From assembly GCA_034190465.1 (NCBI GenBank), contig JAXINV010000075.1:1-12592 (forward strand): a stretch of DNA of 12,592 nt, written 5' to 3'. Below, one piece after another: positions 4 through 12,536 of this stretch. This DNA is from Candidatus Asbonarchaeum danakilense (lineage in GTDB: Archaea > Nanohalarchaeota > Nanosalinia > Nanosalinales > Nanoanaerosalinaceae). Under the pieces are notes generated by a model. The model searched no databases. It was not told where the DNA came from and worked only from the letters and a program-made list of their open reading frames with translations. The position numbers and the translations under genes are program-made. Positions within the stretch are counted from its first letter, which is position 1, and every line of letters starts with the position of its first letter.

Positions 4-342
4 TCAGCCGATGTAGTTGCCGTCGAACGCCTGCTGCGGGACCTGTTGCTGCATCCCGGTGGCCTGGTCCGGGGCGGCCTCGAACTGCTGCTCGTACGTC
101 TCCCAGACGGCCTCGGCTTCCTCGCCGTCCAGCACGTGCGAGGCGATCTGTTTCGGCTTCGGCATGTCGTACTGCTCGTCCGGGTAGTAGTCCAGCAGCA
201 CAACGTCCCCCTCCGCCACGTCAGCGGCCTGGATGCGGTCCGCAGTGTTGACAGTGAACGTGTTCTGGTCCCATGTCTGCACCATCAGCACAGGACCGTC
301 CTCCGCGTCGATGACCTGTTCGACCTTGGCAGGATGGTACAT
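4..342 (-). CDS. Hypothetical protein (~112 aa); possible OB-fold resembling the PAN/Rpt N-terminal OB domain, with a Gln-rich tail ending NYIG
   Basis: Acidic ORF with the same C/G-ending codon style as the housekeeping genes. Stop TGA at 4-6. ATG at 342 is preferred over GTG at 348 because a CTTAAG box at 365-370 lies at leaderless-promoter spacing. The OB-fold call is my pattern inference. Confidence 0.8.
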   Translation of the reverse strand: MYHPAKVEQVIDAEDGPVLMVQTWDQNTFTVNTADRIQAADVAEGDVVLLDYYPDEQYDMPKPKQIASHVLDGEEAEAVWETYEQQFEAAPDQATGMQQQVPQQAFDGNYIG

Positions 343-364: not shown

Positions 365-410
365 CTTAAGAGTCCCGGCCCCGTTCATGACCACCCGCCG
401 TGATTTTAAG
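365..410. promoter_or_regulatory. Divergent promoter region with two TATA-like boxes (CTTAAG 365-370 for the - strand gene; TTTTAAG 404-410 for GINS)
   Basis: AT-rich boxes in GC-rich DNA, each starting about 28-30 nt upstream of its ATG (342 and 434), with no SD. This is typical of leaderless archaeal transcripts. Confidence 0.6.
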
Positions 411-433: not shown

Positions 434-1342
434 ATGGCCGACGAGGACGTCCTCACCTTCGAACAGCTGAAAAACCTGCAGAACAAGGAACAGGACAGCG
501 ACACCCTGCAGGAGCTCGACGAATCCTTCTTCGACCGGGTCAAGGACTACCTCGACCGCAAACAGCGGATCGGCGGCCACCTCAACAACAAAGAATACCG
601 CAACGCCAAGCACATCGTCGAAGACATCCTCGACGCCCGGCAGAAAAAGATCATCCGGCTCGCCTTCCTCGCCACCAAATCCCAGATCACCGTCGACAAC
701 CTGCTGCCCGAGGAAGAACTCCTCTTCGACAGAGTCCAGGAAAGCATCAAAGAACACCGCAGCGAGATCGAGGACCAGCTCTTCGGCGAGGACGACGCCG
801 AAGAACTGGGCGACGAACGACCCGAAGGCGACAGTCCCGGCGGACAGCAGGACAACAGCGACGGAAGCGACGAGGAGACAGGGCAGGACGAAGCAGAAGA
901 GGGCGGCGAGAGCGGAGGAAGAACGGAGAAAGACGAGACCAGGGACGACGGCACGGTCGAGCAGGAGGACGAGACGGACGAAACGGAGAGCGACGAGGAC
1001 AGTGAAGACGGCGAAGAAGCTGACGACAGGGACGAAACCGCGGAGGACGCCGGAGACGAGGATGAAGACGGCGAGGAGCTACTGTTCGGCAGCGACGACA
1101 GCGACGAGGATGAAGGCGGGACGGATGACGGAGACGAGGAAACCAACACCGGGAGCCAGGACGACAGCGAGGAAGCGGACGGCGAGGAGCTGGTCGAGGT
1201 CCGGATGACGGCCGACGTCACCGAGTTCATGGGCGTCGACCTCCAGCCGTACGGCCCGTTCGACGAGGGCGAGACCGCAGAGATACCCGCCGAGAACGCC
1301 GAGGTCCTCGAAGAGCAGGGCAAGGCCGAACAGCAGGACTGA
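434..1342 (+). CDS. DNA replication complex GINS protein (Gins15/Gins51 type, COG1711-like) with a long acidic linker
   Basis: N-terminal helical A domain (LQELDESFFDRVKDYL...ILDARQKKII...NLLPEEELLF) and C-terminal B domain (VRMTADVTEFMGVDLQPYGPFDEGETAEIPAENAEVL). It lies directly upstream of rpl44e-rps27e-aIF2alpha-nop10, as in the conserved archaeal cluster. Confidence 0.88.
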   Translation: MADEDVLTFEQLKNLQNKEQDSDTLQELDESFFDRVKDYLDRKQRIGGHLNNKEYRNAKHIVEDILDARQKKIIRLAFLATKSQITVDNLLPEEELLFDRVQESIKEHRSEIEDQLFGEDDAEELGDERPEGDSPGGQQDNSDGSDEETGQDEAEEGGESGGRTEKDETRDDGTVEQEDETDETESDEDSEDGEEADDRDETAEDAGDEDEDGEELLFGSDDSDEDEGGTDDGDEETNTGSQDDSEEADGEELVEVRMTADVTEFMGVDLQPYGPFDEGETAEIPAENAEVLEEQGKAEQQD

Positions 1343-2869: not shown

Positions 2870-3664
2870 ATGAATAACACAGCCAAAGACCACGATAGCA
2901 CCAACGTTCTCATCCACGACGAACCCGACCTCGAAAACCCCGTCTTCATCGAAGGCCTCACCGGCATCGGCCATATCGGCAGGACAGCCGTCGACTACCT
3001 CATAGACCACCTCGGCGCCGAGAAGTTCGGCGAGATCCTGTCCCACCACTTCCCGCACTGGACCATCGTCGACGACGACAGTCAGCTCGACATCCTGAAG
3101 AACGAACTCTACTACCTCGAACGGGATGACGGCCGCGATATCATCTTCCTCATCGGCGACGCACAGAGCCTCGATCCAGAGGGCCATTACGAGGTTGCTC
3201 ACGCTATCGTCAACCTACTCGACGACATGGGCGTCGAGGACCTCGTCACCATCGGCGGCTACGGCACCGGCGAGACCGTCGACGATCCCGATGTCTTCGG
3301 CGTCGTCACCGAGAAGGATCTGATCGACGACTACGACGACTACAGTGTGAGTTTCGACCACAACGTCGGCCAGATCATCGGGGCTTCCGGCCTCCTGCTC
3401 GGTATCGGCGAGCGGTACGGCATGCAGGGCGTCTGCCTGCTCGGCGAGACACCCGGCTTCCTGCTGTCCGACCCCAAGGCCACCGAGGCCGTGCTCAAGG
3501 TACTGGAAGACATGCTCGACCTGGATCTCGATTACGATAACCTCGACGAAAAGATCGAAGAAGCCGAAGAAGTCATCAAGAAGATCCAGCAGATCCAGCA
3601 GCAGGTCCAGGAACAGCAGGAGAAACAGGAGCAAGGCGGCAAGGACCTCAACTACATCGGCTAA
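2870..3664 (+). CDS. Proteasome assembly chaperone family protein (PAC2 family, archaeal Pba-like)
   Basis: FIEGLTGIGHIG, IGDAQ, VTIGGYGTG, GQIIGASGLLLG and CLLGETPG...DPKA motifs, with a coiled tail ending DLNYIG. Canonical position after nop10. Confidence 0.93.
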   Translation: MNNTAKDHDSTNVLIHDEPDLENPVFIEGLTGIGHIGRTAVDYLIDHLGAEKFGEILSHHFPHWTIVDDDSQLDILKNELYYLERDDGRDIIFLIGDAQSLDPEGHYEVAHAIVNLLDDMGVEDLVTIGGYGTGETVDDPDVFGVVTEKDLIDDYDDYSVSFDHNVGQIIGASGLLLGIGERYGMQGVCLLGETPGFLLSDPKATEAVLKVLEDMLDLDLDYDNLDEKIEEAEEVIKKIQQIQQQVQEQQEKQEQGGKDLNYIG

Positions 3665-5775: not shown

Positions 5776-6582
5776 ATGCGTCGCGCCACCGCGGGCCACT
5801 ACACCCACAGCGAACCCCGGCTCAGACAGCAGCTCGGCCAGCTGTTCCACGGGCTCCCCGATCCCGGGCTCGTTCCGCAGCTTGTTGTAGCGCCGCATGG
5901 CAGCCTCGACGCATCCGGCCAGGTCGCCGCCAAGGTGTACAACGCCATCGACTTCTCACAGTTCAGGAACGCCGTCGTACTCGGCGCCAAGCACCGTGAC
6001 ATCGGGCCCGACATCGCCGTCTCGCTCGAGCCGTGGGAGACACCGTTAGGCCGGACGGACATCGACCGCATGTTCACCGACCAGCTCGTCACCAAGGACC
6101 TGGCAGAGCAGTCGGAACAGGCGCACAGGCACGAGACATCGATCGAGATGCAGCTGCTGATGCTGCAGTACTGCTGGGACGACTTCGACCTGGCCCCCGT
6201 CCTGATCGACAACGAGGTCGATGATGACACGTTCAACGACCTGGTCGCAGGCATCAAGGACGCGCTCAACCCGTCAGACCTCCTCATCGTCGGCACTGAC
6301 CTGGTCAGGGCCGGCAGGAAGTACTACACCGTCGGGGATGACCACCCCGAGCAGGAGGTCGAACAGGCGGACAGACAGTTCATCGAGCTGCTCGACCGGC
6401 AGGACCAGGAGGATATCGGTGCGTTCGGCCGTGAGCACCATGTCTGCGGGTGGCGGCCGTTGCAGGCAGGCATGGCCGCCCGTGACCTCGACCTGTTCCA
6501 CCGGCTGGGGCATACTACAAGCTTTAAATCCGACAGCGACGAACGTACAATCACCGGCTACGGAGGCTTTTGTTACACATGA
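5776..6582 (+). CDS. MEMO1 family protein (AmmeMemoRadiSam protein B-like), divergent
   Basis: VAPHG..ASG, VVLGAKH, WETPLG, H..ExSIEMQL..LQ, GTD, VCG..P and terminal GY motifs. MEMO1 commonly follows rps2 in archaea. Confidence 0.88.
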   Translation: MRRATAGHYTHSEPRLRQQLGQLFHGLPDPGLVPQLVVAPHGSLDASGQVAAKVYNAIDFSQFRNAVVLGAKHRDIGPDIAVSLEPWETPLGRTDIDRMFTDQLVTKDLAEQSEQAHRHETSIEMQLLMLQYCWDDFDLAPVLIDNEVDDDTFNDLVAGIKDALNPSDLLIVGTDLVRAGRKYYTVGDDHPEQEVEQADRQFIELLDRQDQEDIGAFGREHHVCGWRPLQAGMAARDLDLFHRLGHTTSFKSDSDERTITGYGGFCYT

Positions 6583-8999
6583 AACAGTGGCTCGGCGCTG
6601 TCCTCATCGCATCCGTCCTGCTCGCCGGCTGCGTCGGCAACGGCGGGAACGGCGGCGACCAGTTCGCGGAGCGTAACATCACCAAGGACGACATCTTCGA
6701 GATGGTCAAGGACCAGGCCGACGTCTACGACTACATCCAGCGCCAGCGCAATCCCAAGGCCGGCACCAACTTCTGGGCGTGGAGCGCCATCCAGCGGCTC
6801 GGCACCAACTTCACCTGCTATCCGCAGCTGGAGCAGGGCAGCAACTACTTCCGTGTCACCATCTTCGGCAACACCTCCGTCATGGATGTCTGGATGGAGG
6901 CCGACAGCTACAGGATACACTGCGCCAAGGTCCTCGGCCGTGAGGAAGCCATCGAGCAGGGTATCCACCCGGACCAGACCGACAAGGATCCGATCAGCAA
7001 GGAACGGGACGACGATGACAACGATCAGGACGGGACCAACAACACCGGCAACGGGACGACGGGTAGTGATCTCAGTCTCTCCATCACCGGGTACGGCCCT
7101 ACCGCGACAGGTCACCTCGTCTACGTCGCAGTCAGCTCCGGCCTGTCCAGCACCGTCCAGACCACGCTCGAGTACGGGTCGAACTCGCGTTCCATCCAGG
7201 TCAGCCCCGGTGACAACACCTACTCCATCGAGACCACACAGACAGGTGACGTGACGTTCACACTCACCTACCAGGACAGCGACACCTCCAACAACGCCGA
7301 CACAGTCACCTTACAGGACGACAGCACGCAGAACGACACCAACAACGGCAACGGCGGGACGACGAACGACACCGACAGCAACACCACCGACGGCACCGAG
7401 GTCACCTACAACTTCTGGATGGACGCGTTCACCATCTACCCCGACGACCCGAACCAGGGCGACGATGTGGACTTCGGGATCAGGATCAACTCCACCCGGT
7501 TCAAGAACTACGTCGACCTCGTCATCACGTCAGGTGCAGGGACGACCATCCGCTCGAAGCGCATCGCCGTCAACGGCACCCGGATCCTGACGATAACCTA
7601 TACCTACGACGGCGAGGACAGTTTCACCGCTACGCTCGACCCCGACAACGAGTACAACGAGACAGACGAGACAGACAACAGCAGGTCCGTCACCGTCTCC
7701 TCCGGCGGCACCCAGGACGTCGCCGTCACCGGTGTCAGGACCGATCCCGCCGATCCACACAACCAGGAGAACATCAGCCTGATCGCCGACCTGTCCAGCG
7801 ACGGCTACAACGGCGACGTGACCGTCACCTTCAGCTGGGACGGCAGCCAGGTCGGGTCGAAGACCATCTCCATCTCCTCCGGTGTCAGCACCAGCGTCTC
7901 CGTCCACAAGGTCGTCAGCTCTGGCTCCCACGACCTTACAGCATCGATCAGCCTGTCCGACGGGAACACAGACAACAACCAGGCATCGAAGGCCGTCGAC
8001 GTGGCCGACTACACCACGTTCAACGTCAACTGGGAGCGGAACATCGGCTACCCGGCGCTCAACCTGATACATGACAGCGGCACGCTGTACACGCTGGCCG
8101 CCGGCATCGTCTTCGCGCTCGATGCCAACAGCGGGGACACTAAGTGGCGGAAGGACGTTGGCCACAACGTCGAGAGCCCGCTCTCACCGATCATGGGCAA
8201 CGGCTTCCTGTTCTACGGCGAGAACGCCGGCAACCAGGCCGTCGGGTTCAGCATCTCCTCGCAGAGCGTCGCATGGACCTACAAGACCGGGTACTCTGTC
8301 CGTTCCGGCGCCGCCTACGCCGATGGACGGGTCTTCATGGGATCGGACGACGGCTCGATGTACGCCTACGATGCCAGCAGCGGTGACGTGCTCTGGAGCA
8401 AGGGCGGCGGCGAGCTCCGTTCCAAGCCAGCAGTTAAGGGAAGCACCGTCTACCACGGCCAGTGGGATCCAGCGACCATCTACGCCCGCGACGTTTCCGG
8501 CGGCAGCCTGAAATGGTCCGTCGGCCTCAGCGGCAAGATTGAACGGTCCTCCCCCTACGTCGGCAGTTCCAACGTCTACGTCGGCACCACCGCAGGCACG
8601 ATGTACGCCATCAGCAGGAGTAGCCAGAGCGTCATCTGGCAGTTCGACGCCGGCAGCGAGATCACGTCCTCCCCGACCCTGGCAGACGGCAAGGTCGTGT
8701 TCGGTGGCAGTGGTGGCAAGGTCTATGCGGCCTGGGCGGCGAACGGCACCCAGGCATGGAGCTTCCAGACCTCAAGCACAGGGACAGTCACAGCCTCCCC
8801 CGCAGCGGCGAGCGACACCGTCTATATCGGCAGCCCGAACGGCGTCTTCTACGCGCTTGACATCGACACCGGGACGCGGAACTGCGAGTACGATACAGGG
8901 GCCGGATCCATCGTGACACGGCCGACGATCGTCGGAGATACTGTCTACACCAGCACACAGAGCGACAAGGTCTTCAGCTTCCAGACCTGCCCATCCTAG
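6579..8999 (+). CDS. Surface lipoprotein (806 aa): lipobox, N-terminal domain, D/N/T-rich linkers, Ig-like/CARDB domains and a C-terminal PQQ-like (BamB-type) beta-propeller
   Basis: ATG 6579 overlaps the MEMO1 stop (ATGA), with GGAGG at 6562-6566. Signal peptide MKQWLGAVLIASVLLAG-C. CARDB signature ATLDPDNEYNETDETDN. Repeated (Y/F)A.D..SG...W blades from about 8010 to the end. Confidence 0.85.
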   Translation: MKQWLGAVLIASVLLAGCVGNGGNGGDQFAERNITKDDIFEMVKDQADVYDYIQRQRNPKAGTNFWAWSAIQRLGTNFTCYPQLEQGSNYFRVTIFGNTSVMDVWMEADSYRIHCAKVLGREEAIEQGIHPDQTDKDPISKERDDDDNDQDGTNNTGNGTTGSDLSLSITGYGPTATGHLVYVAVSSGLSSTVQTTLEYGSNSRSIQVSPGDNTYSIETTQTGDVTFTLTYQDSDTSNNADTVTLQDDSTQNDTNNGNGGTTNDTDSNTTDGTEVTYNFWMDAFTIYPDDPNQGDDVDFGIRINSTRFKNYVDLVITSGAGTTIRSKRIAVNGTRILTITYTYDGEDSFTATLDPDNEYNETDETDNSRSVTVSSGGTQDVAVTGVRTDPADPHNQENISLIADLSSDGYNGDVTVTFSWDGSQVGSKTISISSGVSTSVSVHKVVSSGSHDLTASISLSDGNTDNNQASKAVDVADYTTFNVNWERNIGYPALNLIHDSGTLYTLAAGIVFALDANSGDTKWRKDVGHNVESPLSPIMGNGFLFYGENAGNQAVGFSISSQSVAWTYKTGYSVRSGAAYADGRVFMGSDDGSMYAYDASSGDVLWSKGGGELRSKPAVKGSTVYHGQWDPATIYARDVSGGSLKWSVGLSGKIERSSPYVGSSNVYVGTTAGTMYAISRSSQSVIWQFDAGSEITSSPTLADGKVVFGGSGGKVYAAWAANGTQAWSFQTSSTGTVTASPAAASDTVYIGSPNGVFYALDIDTGTRNCEYDTGAGSIVTRPTIVGDTVYTSTQSDKVFSFQTCPS

Positions 9000-9030
9000 C
9001 GCCATCCTCGGGCCGACCGCGGTGCAGACC

Positions 9031-9044
9031 GGTAAACCTTTAAA
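9031..9044 (+). promoter_or_regulatory. BRE/TATA-like promoter (GGTAAA-CC-TTTAAA) for the three-gene surface operon
   Basis: TTTAAA at 9039-9044, 30 nt before ATG 9069, preceded by a purine-rich BRE-like stretch. Confidence 0.6.
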
Positions 9045-9068
9045 CCGACGACCCCAACAAGAACCCAG

Positions 9069-10262
9069 ATGTCGATCAAGAAACTGCTCTACGCAGCCAC
9101 CATCGTGCTCCTGCTCGCATCGAGCGGGACAGCACTCCGTTTCTACTCGCTTGACACCGGAAGATCGACATACGAACCCGGGGAGACAGTCAGGATCTCA
9201 GCACAGCTCGTCAACGGCGAACAGCCACGCGCCGACCATCAGATCGAATTCGCCATCGCGTACAGCCCCATCTACAACAAGAACCGGGCGATGGATGGCG
9301 AGACCATCCAGGTCCAGCGACATATCCCGATCGAATTCACACCAGGCGAGACCAGGTACCTGAACCACACCTGGCAGCTGTCCGACAACGCAGCTCCCGG
9401 CAGCTACAAGATATACTACTTCGTCCGTGACGCGAACGAGAACACGGTCGTCGTCAACACCGCACGGTTCAACGTCTCATACGCCGGGCAGGAAATCCGC
9501 GCGATCCTGATGGACGACCTCCTCTTCCACCAAGGTAATTCCATCGGGTACAGCCTCGAGGGGCTGCGTGTCACACCGAACAAGACGGCCAACACCACGA
9601 TGATGGTCACCAACGTCGGCAACGTCGAGCTCGACATCACGATGACGATGGATATGCAGTACAGCTTTGACCGGACACAGAGCGCGTTCAACATGACAGA
9701 GCAGGTAACGATCGCGCCGAACCAGACAGAGAAGGTCGTCTTCGAGTTCATGCCGCCCGACGAACCGACCTCGTACACCCCCGTCTTCACCGCGTACGAC
9801 AGCCAGGGCACCTTCCTCGGACAGACCCATGGCCGGCTCGTCGTCCGGGGGAACAGCGGCCGCATCCTGAACGCAGGCATCGGGAAGCTCGGCTATGCCG
9901 GCGGCCAGCCTATCACCCTGACGGCCGAGCTCATCGGCCCCGCCGATTACAGCGGCACCATCCAGGACGCCACCCTCAACTACACCGTGGAAGACAGTCA
10001 GGGCGTCCTGATACAGGGTGAGCGGACCGTCGACATCGGCGGGCAGATCACGGATGTAAAGATACAGGAAGAGGCACCGCGGGCGTTCGCCAACCCGAAC
10101 GTCACCATGGTGCTGCACAAGAACGGCAACGTCTACGACAGATACCATGTCAGCTACACCGGCGGCGAAGTACCCGAAACCGGGCTCGACCTGCGGATCA
10201 TCGCCGGGATCGTCGTCCTCGTCCTCGCAGCAGGACTCCTCGTCTGGAGGTGGCGCTCATGA
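9069..10262 (+). CDS. Secreted, C-terminally anchored protein (397 aa) with about three Ig-like beta-sandwich domains
   Basis: N-terminal signal peptide and beta-rich segments (YEPGETVRISAQL, PGSYKIYY, VTNVGNV, YAGGQPITLTAEL). Eight N-X-S/T sequons by manual count. Ends VPETG, then a hydrophobic helix, then WRWRS. Confidence 0.8.
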   Translation: MSIKKLLYAATIVLLLASSGTALRFYSLDTGRSTYEPGETVRISAQLVNGEQPRADHQIEFAIAYSPIYNKNRAMDGETIQVQRHIPIEFTPGETRYLNHTWQLSDNAAPGSYKIYYFVRDANENTVVVNTARFNVSYAGQEIRAILMDDLLFHQGNSIGYSLEGLRVTPNKTANTTMMVTNVGNVELDITMTMDMQYSFDRTQSAFNMTEQVTIAPNQTEKVVFEFMPPDEPTSYTPVFTAYDSQGTFLGQTHGRLVVRGNSGRILNAGIGKLGYAGGQPITLTAELIGPADYSGTIQDATLNYTVEDSQGVLIQGERTVDIGGQITDVKIQEEAPRAFANPNVTMVLHKNGNVYDRYHVSYTGGEVPETGLDLRIIAGIVVLVLAAGLLVWRWRS

Positions 10263-11572
10263 GATTCGGCAAGACACTCCTCATCATCACGGTAGTGGCA
10301 GCATCCATAAGCCTGGGCGCAGCAGCTCCTGTCGACCAGGTTTCCTGCAACAGCTACACATTGCATGACATCGATGCCAGTTCGATAACGTATTCAGACG
10401 ATCCTAACAACAATAAAAACCTGGAAAGATACATGAGCCCGCGGGAAGAGGTCTCGCTCGAGTTCGAGTACAACCTCCCTGCCTGCGACAACTCCGCCGA
10501 CCACTCCCGGCACGTCGTCAGGTTCTACGACGGACAGGGACGGTACCTCGGCAAGAAGGTCGACCTGCAGATGAAGCAGGGCAACTGGGACAGCTACACC
10601 ACGTACAACGTCCCCATCACCATCCCCGAGTTCAACACCTCCACCGTCCGGGTCGTGGTCGATATCTACTCCAACTCCGTCCACGGCTCCGACGTCTGGC
10701 ATGAACAGAACATCGAGCGGGCGTACGACAAGGTCATCACCGACACCGTGCCCGAGGCCGGAGACCGGCTCAACCTCGACAAGCTTCCCGTCGGCCAGGA
10801 CAATATCCAGATGCTGAAGGACGCGCAGACGACCAGCAACTTCTGGGGCGACTGCGCCAACATCGCGCGGTCGATCAACAACAACTCATACGTCACCAAC
10901 CCCGGCATGCCCGGCCTCCACATCTCACGGGACAACTGGTACATGGACTCCGGTGGCGGCCACCCATGCTACATCTTCTCCGCCTACGAGCAGGCACGGG
11001 CGATGTACAACTGGTTCAAGGTCATCGACTACAACAGCCAGAACGACAACAAGATCGGCAAGGCCGGTGCCTGCGGACCCAACCCGAACCGGCAGCACAA
11101 CGGTGCCGGCTACTCGACCGGCCACTCCCGAACGTTCAAGCGCGCCTGCCCGGACTACAACGGCGAATGGGTCGCTTCAGGGGACAACGTTGCCTGTGAC
11201 GACGGGTCACGTATGCAGGCAAGCAACCACGACGGTGAGATCATCACCATCGACCGGAACGGGAAGACCACCCACTATGTCTCCGACGGCTCGAATTGGA
11301 TCCCGGAGACCGCCTCCGACAGCAGCCAGAACGCCTGTCAGGCATTCATCGATGCACAGGGCAAGGGCAACTGGGCCGACAGCGGCGAAATCGTCGCCGA
11401 GGCATCCGGCGTCGCCGGTGCACGCTGCAACCTGGAGCTGACGCAGGACAAGTTCATCGTCGGGAAGACCCTGTACCGGAGCGGCGAGAAGGTGGACTGC
11501 ACCTCGCCGACCGGCGTCCAGGAATCAGTGACCATCAAAGGGACAACCTACTACTGCAAGGGCATCTCCTGA
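10259..11572 (+). CDS. Secreted hypothetical protein (437 aa, 11 Cys), no membrane anchor
   Basis: ATG 10259 overlaps the upstream stop (ATGA), with SD GGAGGTG at 10246-10252. Signal peptide MRFGKTLLIITVVAASISLGAAA. No recognisable family. Confidence 0.78.
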   Translation: MRFGKTLLIITVVAASISLGAAAPVDQVSCNSYTLHDIDASSITYSDDPNNNKNLERYMSPREEVSLEFEYNLPACDNSADHSRHVVRFYDGQGRYLGKKVDLQMKQGNWDSYTTYNVPITIPEFNTSTVRVVVDIYSNSVHGSDVWHEQNIERAYDKVITDTVPEAGDRLNLDKLPVGQDNIQMLKDAQTTSNFWGDCANIARSINNNSYVTNPGMPGLHISRDNWYMDSGGGHPCYIFSAYEQARAMYNWFKVIDYNSQNDNKIGKAGACGPNPNRQHNGAGYSTGHSRTFKRACPDYNGEWVASGDNVACDDGSRMQASNHDGEIITIDRNGKTTHYVSDGSNWIPETASDSSQNACQAFIDAQGKGNWADSGEIVAEASGVAGARCNLELTQDKFIVGKTLYRSGEKVDCTSPTGVQESVTIKGTTYYCKGIS

Positions 11573-11588
11573 CAGCGAGGAACCAATC

Positions 11589-12536
11589 ATGCAAGCAATC
11601 AAATACGGGCTCATCGTCCTTTCACTCTTGATGATCGCCCCTGCAGCCACCAGTGCTGCGCCATCGGAGTACACGTGGAGTACAGACCCTTCGTCCGGCA
11701 GCGTCCAGGACGGCTTCTGCTACCAGGGCGTGCCCCCTGACAAGGACATCGACTGTGCCGGCGTCAACAAATGGTGTGATTCACGCAGCACCAACCAGGC
11801 CTGCGACGAATCAGGTGACACCTGGCTGTGCAACAACGGCGAATGGGCCTGTGACAACGGCGAACGGAAGGAACCCAACAACGTGAGTGCCTGTACCTCC
11901 ATCCAGCTCAAAGCTCCCGGCTGCTACTCCGCGTTCAGCGGTACATACAGGTGTTACAGCGACGGAAAAACACGGTGGTCCGCCCTGAAACCCGGCGGCT
12001 GCTCATGTCAGAACGACTATGAATGTACCAGTGGCCTCTGCCAGTCAGGAGCATGTATCTCCTACGTAGCTCCCAGTATATCATTCAGTCCCACGATCCA
12101 GAGCCTGACCCTCGGGATCGACGAAGAACAGACCATCAACATCAGGATAGGTAACGATATGGCCCGTAAAGACACCATCAACGTCAGTCTGGGAGGCCGG
12201 GCCGTGACGGAGGGACTCATCGCGTGGGACATCACAGAGAGCTCCGGCGTCAGCTGCAACGACGACGAGACCAGGTGTCAAGTAAACGTGGATGGTAAGA
12301 GTTCCACCGTCATGTCTGTCTCTCTGGTCGGTGCAGCCTGTACCACAGACAGCTGCACAGGCGAGCTCGCAGTCACTGCCGTTTCCTCGGTCTCCCGGCT
12401 TGAGACGACGGACAGCATCCCGGTTCAGATCCAGGCCGTCAAGGACGGGAAGACCGTGCAGGCACCTGGCATGACTCTCGTCTATCTCCTCGTCCTGCTT
12501 GGACTGGCAGGCGCATACAGCTTCTGGCAGCAGTGA
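11589..12536 (+). CDS. Secreted Cys-rich protein (315 aa, 18 Cys) with an Ig-like domain and a C-terminal APGM + transmembrane anchor
   Basis: Signal peptide, 14 Cys in the N-terminal ~115-aa domain, a beta-rich domain with two further Cys pairs, and the C-terminus QAPGMTLVYLLVLLGLAGAYSFWQQ. GAGG at 11577-11580. Confidence 0.8.
   Translation: MQAIKYGLIVLSLLMIAPAATSAAPSEYTWSTDPSSGSVQDGFCYQGVPPDKDIDCAGVNKWCDSRSTNQACDESGDTWLCNNGEWACDNGERKEPNNVSACTSIQLKAPGCYSAFSGTYRCYSDGKTRWSALKPGGCSCQNDYECTSGLCQSGACISYVAPSISFSPTIQSLTLGIDEEQTINIRIGNDMARKDTINVSLGGRAVTEGLIAWDITESSGVSCNDDETRCQVNVDGKSSTVMSVSLVGAACTTDSCTGELAVTAVSSVSRLETTDSIPVQIQAVKDGKTVQAPGMTLVYLLVLLGLAGAYSFWQQ

Follow-up and report, generated by a model that had tools for sequence, protein, structure and literature searches.

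Genomic context of P0002

The window, by which we mean the whole 12,592-nt stretch of the Candidatus Asbonarchaeum danakilense contig that was analyzed, is GC-rich and encodes acidic proteins. At its left edge lies the gene for a small protein, P0002, with an OB barrel, a helix and a tail (Table 1). The open reading frame has a high codon score, 15 of 16 candidate homologues (P0002 itself counted) matched at E ≤ 1e-24, and one homologue from Candidatus Nanohaloarchaea is 61% identical; it is confirmed as a real gene. An in-frame GTG at position 348 is an alternative start that would give a product of 114 amino acids. We assigned the start to the ATG at 342 because all 15 close homologues have MYHPA as their N-terminus; all 15 also end in YIG. 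The motifs that a sequence-only reading of this DNA had quoted for the protein (HPAKVEQVID, VLMVQTWDQNTFTVN, VAEGDVVLLD, IASHVLD, AEAVWETYEQQF, a glutamine-rich linker and an NYIG end) were all found in P0002.

The gene is divergent from a run encoding GINS, L44e, S27e, aIF2alpha, PAC2, RpoK, enolase and S2, and the two directions are headed by back-to-back TATA-like elements, which we take to be promoter boxes on the model of the haloarchaeal consensus. The element upstream of P0002 suggests a separate leaderless transcript for the gene. The gene for the PAC2-family proteasome chaperone lies 2.5 kb from P0002 on the opposite strand. The GINS subunit (434-1342, plus strand) carries about 140 acidic low-complexity residues between its helical and C-terminal domains. 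On the plus strand, 6570-12536 codes for four large proteins that are probably secreted or at the surface. One is a beta-propeller of the PQQ type with CARDB, another is Ig-like, and the other two are rich in Cys.

Table 1. Features of P0002 and its surroundings in the window.
Feature	Position	Strand	Details
P0002 gene, 112-aa OB-helix-tail protein	4..342	-	ATG at 342, TGA at 6-4; stop codon included
YIG terminal tripeptide, candidate alpha-ring docking tail	7..15	-	Identical to the end of the local PAC2
Gln/Pro-rich linker, residues 90-109	16..75	-	Low-confidence, variable; from model and alignment
C-terminal helix, residues 73-89, with W80	76..126	-	W80 in 138/150; positioned as in HypC and eIF1A
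OB barrel, residues 1-72, five strands	127..342	-	From AF2 model and fold matches
W24-D25-x-N27 hairpin	262..273	-	W and D in 150/150 rows, N in 144/150
TATA-like TTAAG	365..369	-	23-27 nt upstream of ATG342; from sequence
TATA-like TTTTAAG	404-410	+	Precedes the GINS operon; back to back with the P0002 TTAAG box
PAC2-family proteasome chaperone, ends NYIG	2870..3664	+	TIGR00162 above cut-off; in the GINS-L44e-S27e-aIF2alpha operon

A patchy family of stand-alone archaeal proteins

A profile search for relatives of P0002 recovered 85 representatives at E ≤ 0.001, and a second, word-based search matched 105 of 621 candidates. Apart from a few fragments and two slightly longer forms, the members are stand-alone proteins of about 100-125 amino acids; among 8000 scored candidates no longer form appeared at E ≤ 0.001, which is weak evidence. 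One protein of 1622 amino acids (P0098, E 2.4e-4) was set aside because its match is probably fortuitous. No Pfam model above its cut-off and no NCBIfam model covers the family, and sequence searches of the PDB with P0002 returned nothing below E 0.08; Rpt6 was among the matches at E 0.16-1 and was gone with a wider profile. The literature searched, which lay outside most subscription journals and outside supplements, whose arCOG tables might include the family, does not describe it.

The family is patchy over five archaeal phyla, in 3–21% of the genomes searched: 5 of 70 in the window's phylum, 18 of 111 in Aenigmatarchaeota, 23 of 151 in Micrarchaeota, 6 of 201 in Nanoarchaeota and 8 of 38 in Hydrothermarchaeota, all counts being of incomplete drafts under the phylum names recorded for the centre loci. 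Loci are present in Iainarchaeota and Undinarchaeota too. One Micrarchaeota genome (G077) carries two divergent copies, on C69 and C43. On viral contigs, none of 115 pattern matches to the family was confirmed; a BFVD search gave generic S1/IF1-like matches alone. No RNA holder was among the matches listed. A family tree of 51 of the 52 loci, built with the tails removed, groups many rows by lineage on an unresolved backbone that gives no donor or order of events. The gene is an accessory one, probably ancient and frequently lost.

The genes adjoining family members differ between lineages, and several copies stand next to ribosomal-protein genes. Proximity to a proteasome chaperone, which the sequence-only reading had stressed, is literally correct for the window and is shared with a same-genus genome (G003), but it is not kept outside the genus: none of the 47 distant family loci (1.6-12.3 kb) contains PAC2, a 20S alpha or beta subunit, Cdc48 or PAN.

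Predicted structure and conserved residues

The AlphaFold2 (AF2) model of P0002, computed from an 82-row alignment, has a mean pLDDT of 88.9 and places strands at residues 2-11, 18-23, 28-33, 47-51 and 66-71, a helix at 73-89 and a low-confidence tail at 90-112. The model of a second member, P0031 (pLDDT 91.9), has the same arrangement, with a five-stranded OB barrel followed by a single helix and an end predicted at low confidence. Strand 1 begins at residue 2 in the models, which leaves no N-terminal coiled coil. The absence of Walker motifs noted at the outset extends to the whole family, as Walker A occurs in 0 of 172 sequences.

Across the family W24 and D25 are invariant, and H3, N27, Y52 and W80 almost so; a conserved His stands within the first four residues of 139 of 172 members. 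The WDxN hairpin is aligned with the S-T-G-P of the PAN beta2-beta3 hairpin, which forms the pore lining in PAN's OB ring. From W80 to the C-terminus the median distance is 29 residues, and the unconserved tether is about 20 residues long. The net charge has a family median of +4 and is -18 in P0002.

Fold relatives and the question of ancestry

For P0002, the OB domains of proteasomal ATPases outranked other OB folds. Foldseek placed Rpt and PAN N-domains first, though none reached E ≤ 0.001. A wide structural alignment matched Mpa (Z 8.8, rmsd 1.2 over 57 residues) and PAN (Z 8.6, rmsd 1.4 over 59 residues) along with HypC (Z 7.3, rmsd 3.5 over 70 residues) and eIF1A (Z 7.3, rmsd 3.1 over 77 residues). 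In a second structural comparison, proteasomal ATPases made up all 50 of the 50 matches listed, with human Rpt chains reaching Z 9.7 (1.2 Å, 61 residues). The initial suggestion of a PAN/Rpt-like OB fold is therefore supported for P0002, a stand-alone OB protein whose best solved matches are PAN, Mpa and Rpt, but it is weakened by P0031. This second member, whose beta1-beta2 loop is of the longer kind usual in the family, gave a tie between HypC (Z 7.5), PAN (7.4), eIF1A (7.2) and Mpa (7.1). Because PAN, eIF1A and HypC tie for P0031, a PAN ancestry of the family is plausible but unproven.

Sequence profiles gave a similar picture, scoring 81-83% for PAN-OB (with 4 of 21 rows left out of the profile), 73-84% for HypC and 35-38% for aIF1A on small templates, and the comparison does not separate PAN from HypC. 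The Pfam model of the proteasomal OB domain (PF16450) matched 2 of 82 members weakly, below significance. HypC was the best named structural match in the Atlas (TM 0.60). The nearest named language-model clusters of P0002 and P0031 were PmrD/IraM (0.78-0.80, below the reliability bar), which are small anti-adaptor proteins. As modelled, the barrel core is nearest to PAN/Mpa and the barrel-plus-helix layout nearest to HypC; these OB types lie close together, as described in PMC5683377.

The likeness to the PAN, ARC-Mpa and Rpt domains (PF16450; 2wg5, 3h43 and 3fp9) lies in a barrel that superposes at 1.2-1.6 Å over 56-61 residues, in the profile match and in a chain that ends in a docking-type tail. 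The family differs in lacking the coiled coil and the AAA module; it has one helix more, a loop inserted after beta4, and the invariant WDxN hairpin. Having neither AAA module nor coiled coil, P0002 was not classed as a PAN/Rpt member.

The layout raises the alternative that P0002 is a HypC-like protein-binding chaperone or adaptor whose tail binds a partner other than the 20S proteasome. The whole chain follows HypC over 70 residues with the helix included (Z 7.3 and 7.5 for the two members), and HypC/HupF proteins (PF01455) share with the family the stand-alone OB barrel, the C-terminal helix and an N-terminal P-[AG]-x-V; the profile and Atlas results agree with this. We nevertheless consider this alternative improbable. 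The superposition on HypC is looser (2.8-3.5 Å versus 1.2-1.6 Å for the PAN/Mpa core), the VHxG motif is missing, and a Cys at positions 2-3 occurs in 0 of 172 members, whereas all three HypC proteins compared start with MC; lacking Cys2, P0002 was rejected as a HypC member. The family also adds a tether and a tail, and the mirroring of that tail in Cdc48 and PAC2 (see below) would be left unexplained.

Another possibility is that P0002 is an RNA-binding OB protein of translation, similar to aIF1A/IF1, and that it might link the ribosome to the proteasome in the way suggested for Pbp11. The match to eIF1A and aIF1A (Z 7.0-7.3) includes the helix, 4 of 82 members weakly match the aIF1A/eIF1A model (PF01176; best E 7.7e-4), ribosomal-protein or EF-2 genes adjoin several loci (L027, L054, L062-L067), and the median charge of the family is positive. 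We judge it improbable as well, given the low aIF1A profile score, the rmsd of 3.1-3.3 Å, invariant residues (W, D, N, H and Y) that are not basic and the strongly acidic charge of P0002 itself. Furthermore, P0002 does not match PF01176 and the genome encodes a separate, true aIF1A, and P0002 was rejected as an aIF1A on both counts. Pbp11 (Q9UZY3) of Thermococcales is another small archaeal protein with a beta-barrel and a proteasome connection, but PMC9540759 describes it as a monomeric, helix-free barrel that resembles EF-Tu domain II and has PAN and tRNA as binding partners. Pbp11 was absent among the fold matches listed for P0002.

A conserved C-terminal tripeptide shared with Cdc48 and PAC2

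The end of the tail is more conserved than the linker before it. In 170 sequences (12 of 182 proteins, either outside 95-130 amino acids or identical duplicates, were left out), the entropy ranges over 3.4-3.9 bits from position -15 to position -4 and falls to 2.3, 2.3 and 1.7 bits at -3 to -1. Y or M is preferred at -3, I/V/Y/M at -2 and R or G at -1, with Ile or Val penultimate in 114 of 170. An end of the form [YMF]-Φ-[GRA], a pattern chosen after the tails had been inspected, closes 116 of 170 members. Of the 1208 rough gene calls for this genome it closes only 18, and among neighbouring ORFs 2 of 497. The narrower Y-Φ-G end occurs in five of the 1208 genes (0.9 expected), namely Cdc48 (YFG), PAC2 (YIG), P0002, an uncharacterized acidic protein and an ORF of questionable status. 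The acidic protein (G000:C2:50174-50908(-), 244 amino acids, ending in YLG) is the sole other well-scoring gene of this group.

The resemblance extends to the other carrier genomes, where 26 of 29 complete Cdc48 tails fit [YMF]-Φ-[GRA] (one truncated locus of 30 was left out) and 27 of 27 TIGR00162-like PAC2 tails end in Y-[IV]-[GR] (three loci of 30 were left out, two being distant paralogues ending in MYA or MYG and one truncated). Moreover, the last residue of the family protein is G in 19 of 19 genomes whose PAC2 ends in G versus 4 of 8 whose PAC2 ends in R (Fisher p 0.004, overstated since kin are not independent). Because three unrelated families share this terminal motif, two of them known types of 20S partner, we read the P0002 tail as a candidate 20S docking tail. 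This reading assumes that PAC2 proteins ending in YIG or YIR bind the 20S particle in these lineages. DPANN PAC2 and Cdc48 proteins (L159-L188 and L079-L108) mostly have Y-Φ-G/R or M-F-R ends and not canonical HbYX. The tails ending in R are found mostly in Micrarchaeota and Iainarchaeota, a distribution that suggests a lineage-shifted alpha-pocket code.

The canonical HbYX pattern is [LVIMGAPFYW][FY]x (PMC3493965). It is met by 7 of 7 complete PAN tails and by 20 of 170 family members; the YIG of P0002 has its Tyr at -3. The idea that P0002 has its own docking tail thus stands as regards three conserved final residues that match Cdc48 and PAC2 of the same genomes, but not as regards the canonical motif. 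According to PMC3493965, many canonical-type tails belong to proteins that are not regulators. Multivalency is described as relaxing or overriding the tail consensus, from which archaeal Cdc48 departs (10.1101/2021.04.28.441858).

Proteasome partners and the relationship to PAN

The genome of the window encodes one 20S alpha subunit, one beta subunit, Cdc48 and two PAN-like ATPases. The latter are divergent coiled-coil-OB-AAA proteins for which PAN is the best model, at scores below the NCBIfam cut-off; they lie at G000:C35:3251-4603(-) (L007) and G000:C1:47962-49416(-) (L008), with tails IFA and YIQ. PF16450 alone was discarded as a criterion for calling PAN absent, since neither of these genes matched it and one of its 10 matches was an aIF1A. 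Since such genes escape the PF16450 and NCBIfam cut-offs, standard annotation may miscall these archaea PAN-less. With a profile built to include these two, 59 of the phylum's 70 genomes, among them all five family carriers, showed a PAN-like gene.

In carrier genomes the 20S alpha subunit was found in 37 of 40, PAC2 in 38 of 40 and Cdc48 in 33 of 36; the Lys motif of the alpha pocket was recognized in 25 of 31 by pattern and in the other 6 by eye. Because genomes without the family probably often have alpha, Cdc48 and PAC2 as well, this co-occurrence goes no further than failing to refute docking. By eye, two DPANN AAA ATPases (L112 on G148:C3 and L077 on G089:C17) resemble ARC/Mpa with apparently tandem OB domains. 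Many Cdc48 genes (L103-L108) have open frames of 1100-1700 amino acids in which the profile match is split, the pattern expected of inteins.

The sequence-only reading had cast P0002 as a minimal regulator standing in for PAN in a reduced genome. A PAN N-domain was not seen in 27 of the 36 carriers outside the window's phylum, and in 4 of 5 carriers checked the sole strong AAA modules were the two of one Cdc48. We give replacement of PAN almost no credence, however. The genome of the window has Cdc48 and two PAN-like ATPases, and, as noted above, every carrier of the phylum has a PAN-like gene. Nine of the 36 carriers outside the phylum have both PAN and the family gene, several of these nine having helped build the PAN-like profile. 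In Aenigmatarchaeota a PAN-like N-domain is found in 1 of 111 genomes, yet the family gene is confined to 18. Thus, the family gene neither needs nor replaces PAN.

A proposed model for ATP-independent regulation of the 20S proteasome

Our preferred reading, to which we assign about an even chance, is that P0002 docks by its tail on the archaeal 20S proteasome and serves it, without ATP, as a small regulator or adaptor. The carboxylate of the tripeptide would dock in the pockets between alpha subunits, by analogy with PAN, Cdc48 and PbaB. Several copies of the tail would likely be needed because it lacks the gate-opening penultimate Tyr, and P0002 would therefore probably oligomerize, a PAN-like OB ring being the obvious form. 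The conserved face of the barrel may capture unfolded substrates, or a single partner, and keep them at the gate with no need of ATP. P0002 would be an accessory alternative to Cdc48, PAN and PbaB and not a PAN replacement. On its own, the ARC N-domain acts as an ATP-independent holdase (cited in 10.1101/2020.11.13.381962).

The closest functional parallel is PbaB, a PAC2-family protein whose tetramer activates the 20S particle without ATP through tails on flexible segments (PMC3605417). Like P0002, PbaB has a folded core, flexible C-terminal segments, a docking tripeptide and no ATPase, and the local PAC2 shares the NYIG end with P0002. However, the P0002 fold is unrelated and less than half the size, the PbaB tested in PMC3605417 ends in GYL, and PAC2 is nearly constant in carriers while the family is patchy. 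Cdc48/VAT, another 20S partner with the same tail vocabulary in the same genomes (compare PMC3493965), differs as a double-AAA unfoldase from P0002, which has no motor. The family likely acts like the tail-docking ATP-independent regulators, on a scaffold that the literature searched does not describe for them.

A bolder version of the model has P0002 as a free-standing PAN-type OB ring, that is, a motor-less oligomeric cap without a coiled coil in which the WDxN hairpins would line the pore and tethered tails would grip the alpha ring. We hold this version to be unlikely, if still worth entertaining. In PAN, the coiled coil pairs the subunits; its absence from the predicted family structures counts against the preferred reading.

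A tail that docks need not open the gate. Eukaryotic PI31 consists of a small folded domain, a Pro-rich tether and a terminal motif, and by analogy with this layout P0002 could occupy the alpha pockets of the 20S particle as a competitor or brake against Cdc48, PAN and PbaB while the gate stays shut. The conservation of the tail is equally expected of such a brake, the linker is rich in Gln and Pro, and Cdc48 coexists with the family in nearly all carriers. Furthermore, the penultimate residue of the family is mostly Ile or Val, whereas the open gate is stabilized by a Tyr in that place, as described in PMC3493965. Cdc48 and PAC2 of the same genomes have the same non-canonical tails, so a protein without this Tyr may still activate, and we regard a braking role as doubtful.

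Significance

Forouzan et al. (PMC3493965) considered that further archaeal proteasome partners may await discovery, and the P0002 family is a concrete, small and easily expressed candidate. Because Cdc48 and PAC2 of DPANN archaea use Y-Φ-G/R ends, searches for canonical HbYX would miss tails of this kind. If the family does form an OB-ring cap, ATP-independent proteasome caps would gain a new scaffold, one that either descends from the PAN/Rpt entry ring by reduction or survives as a relic of its precursor, and it would be the sole OB-type cap in many DPANN cells seemingly without PAN. Such a ring would also mean that proteasomal ATPases have an OB entry ring able to function as a separate gene, with a bearing on the modular assembly of PAN and the 19S base and on the control of proteolysis in minimal archaea with Cdc48 alone.
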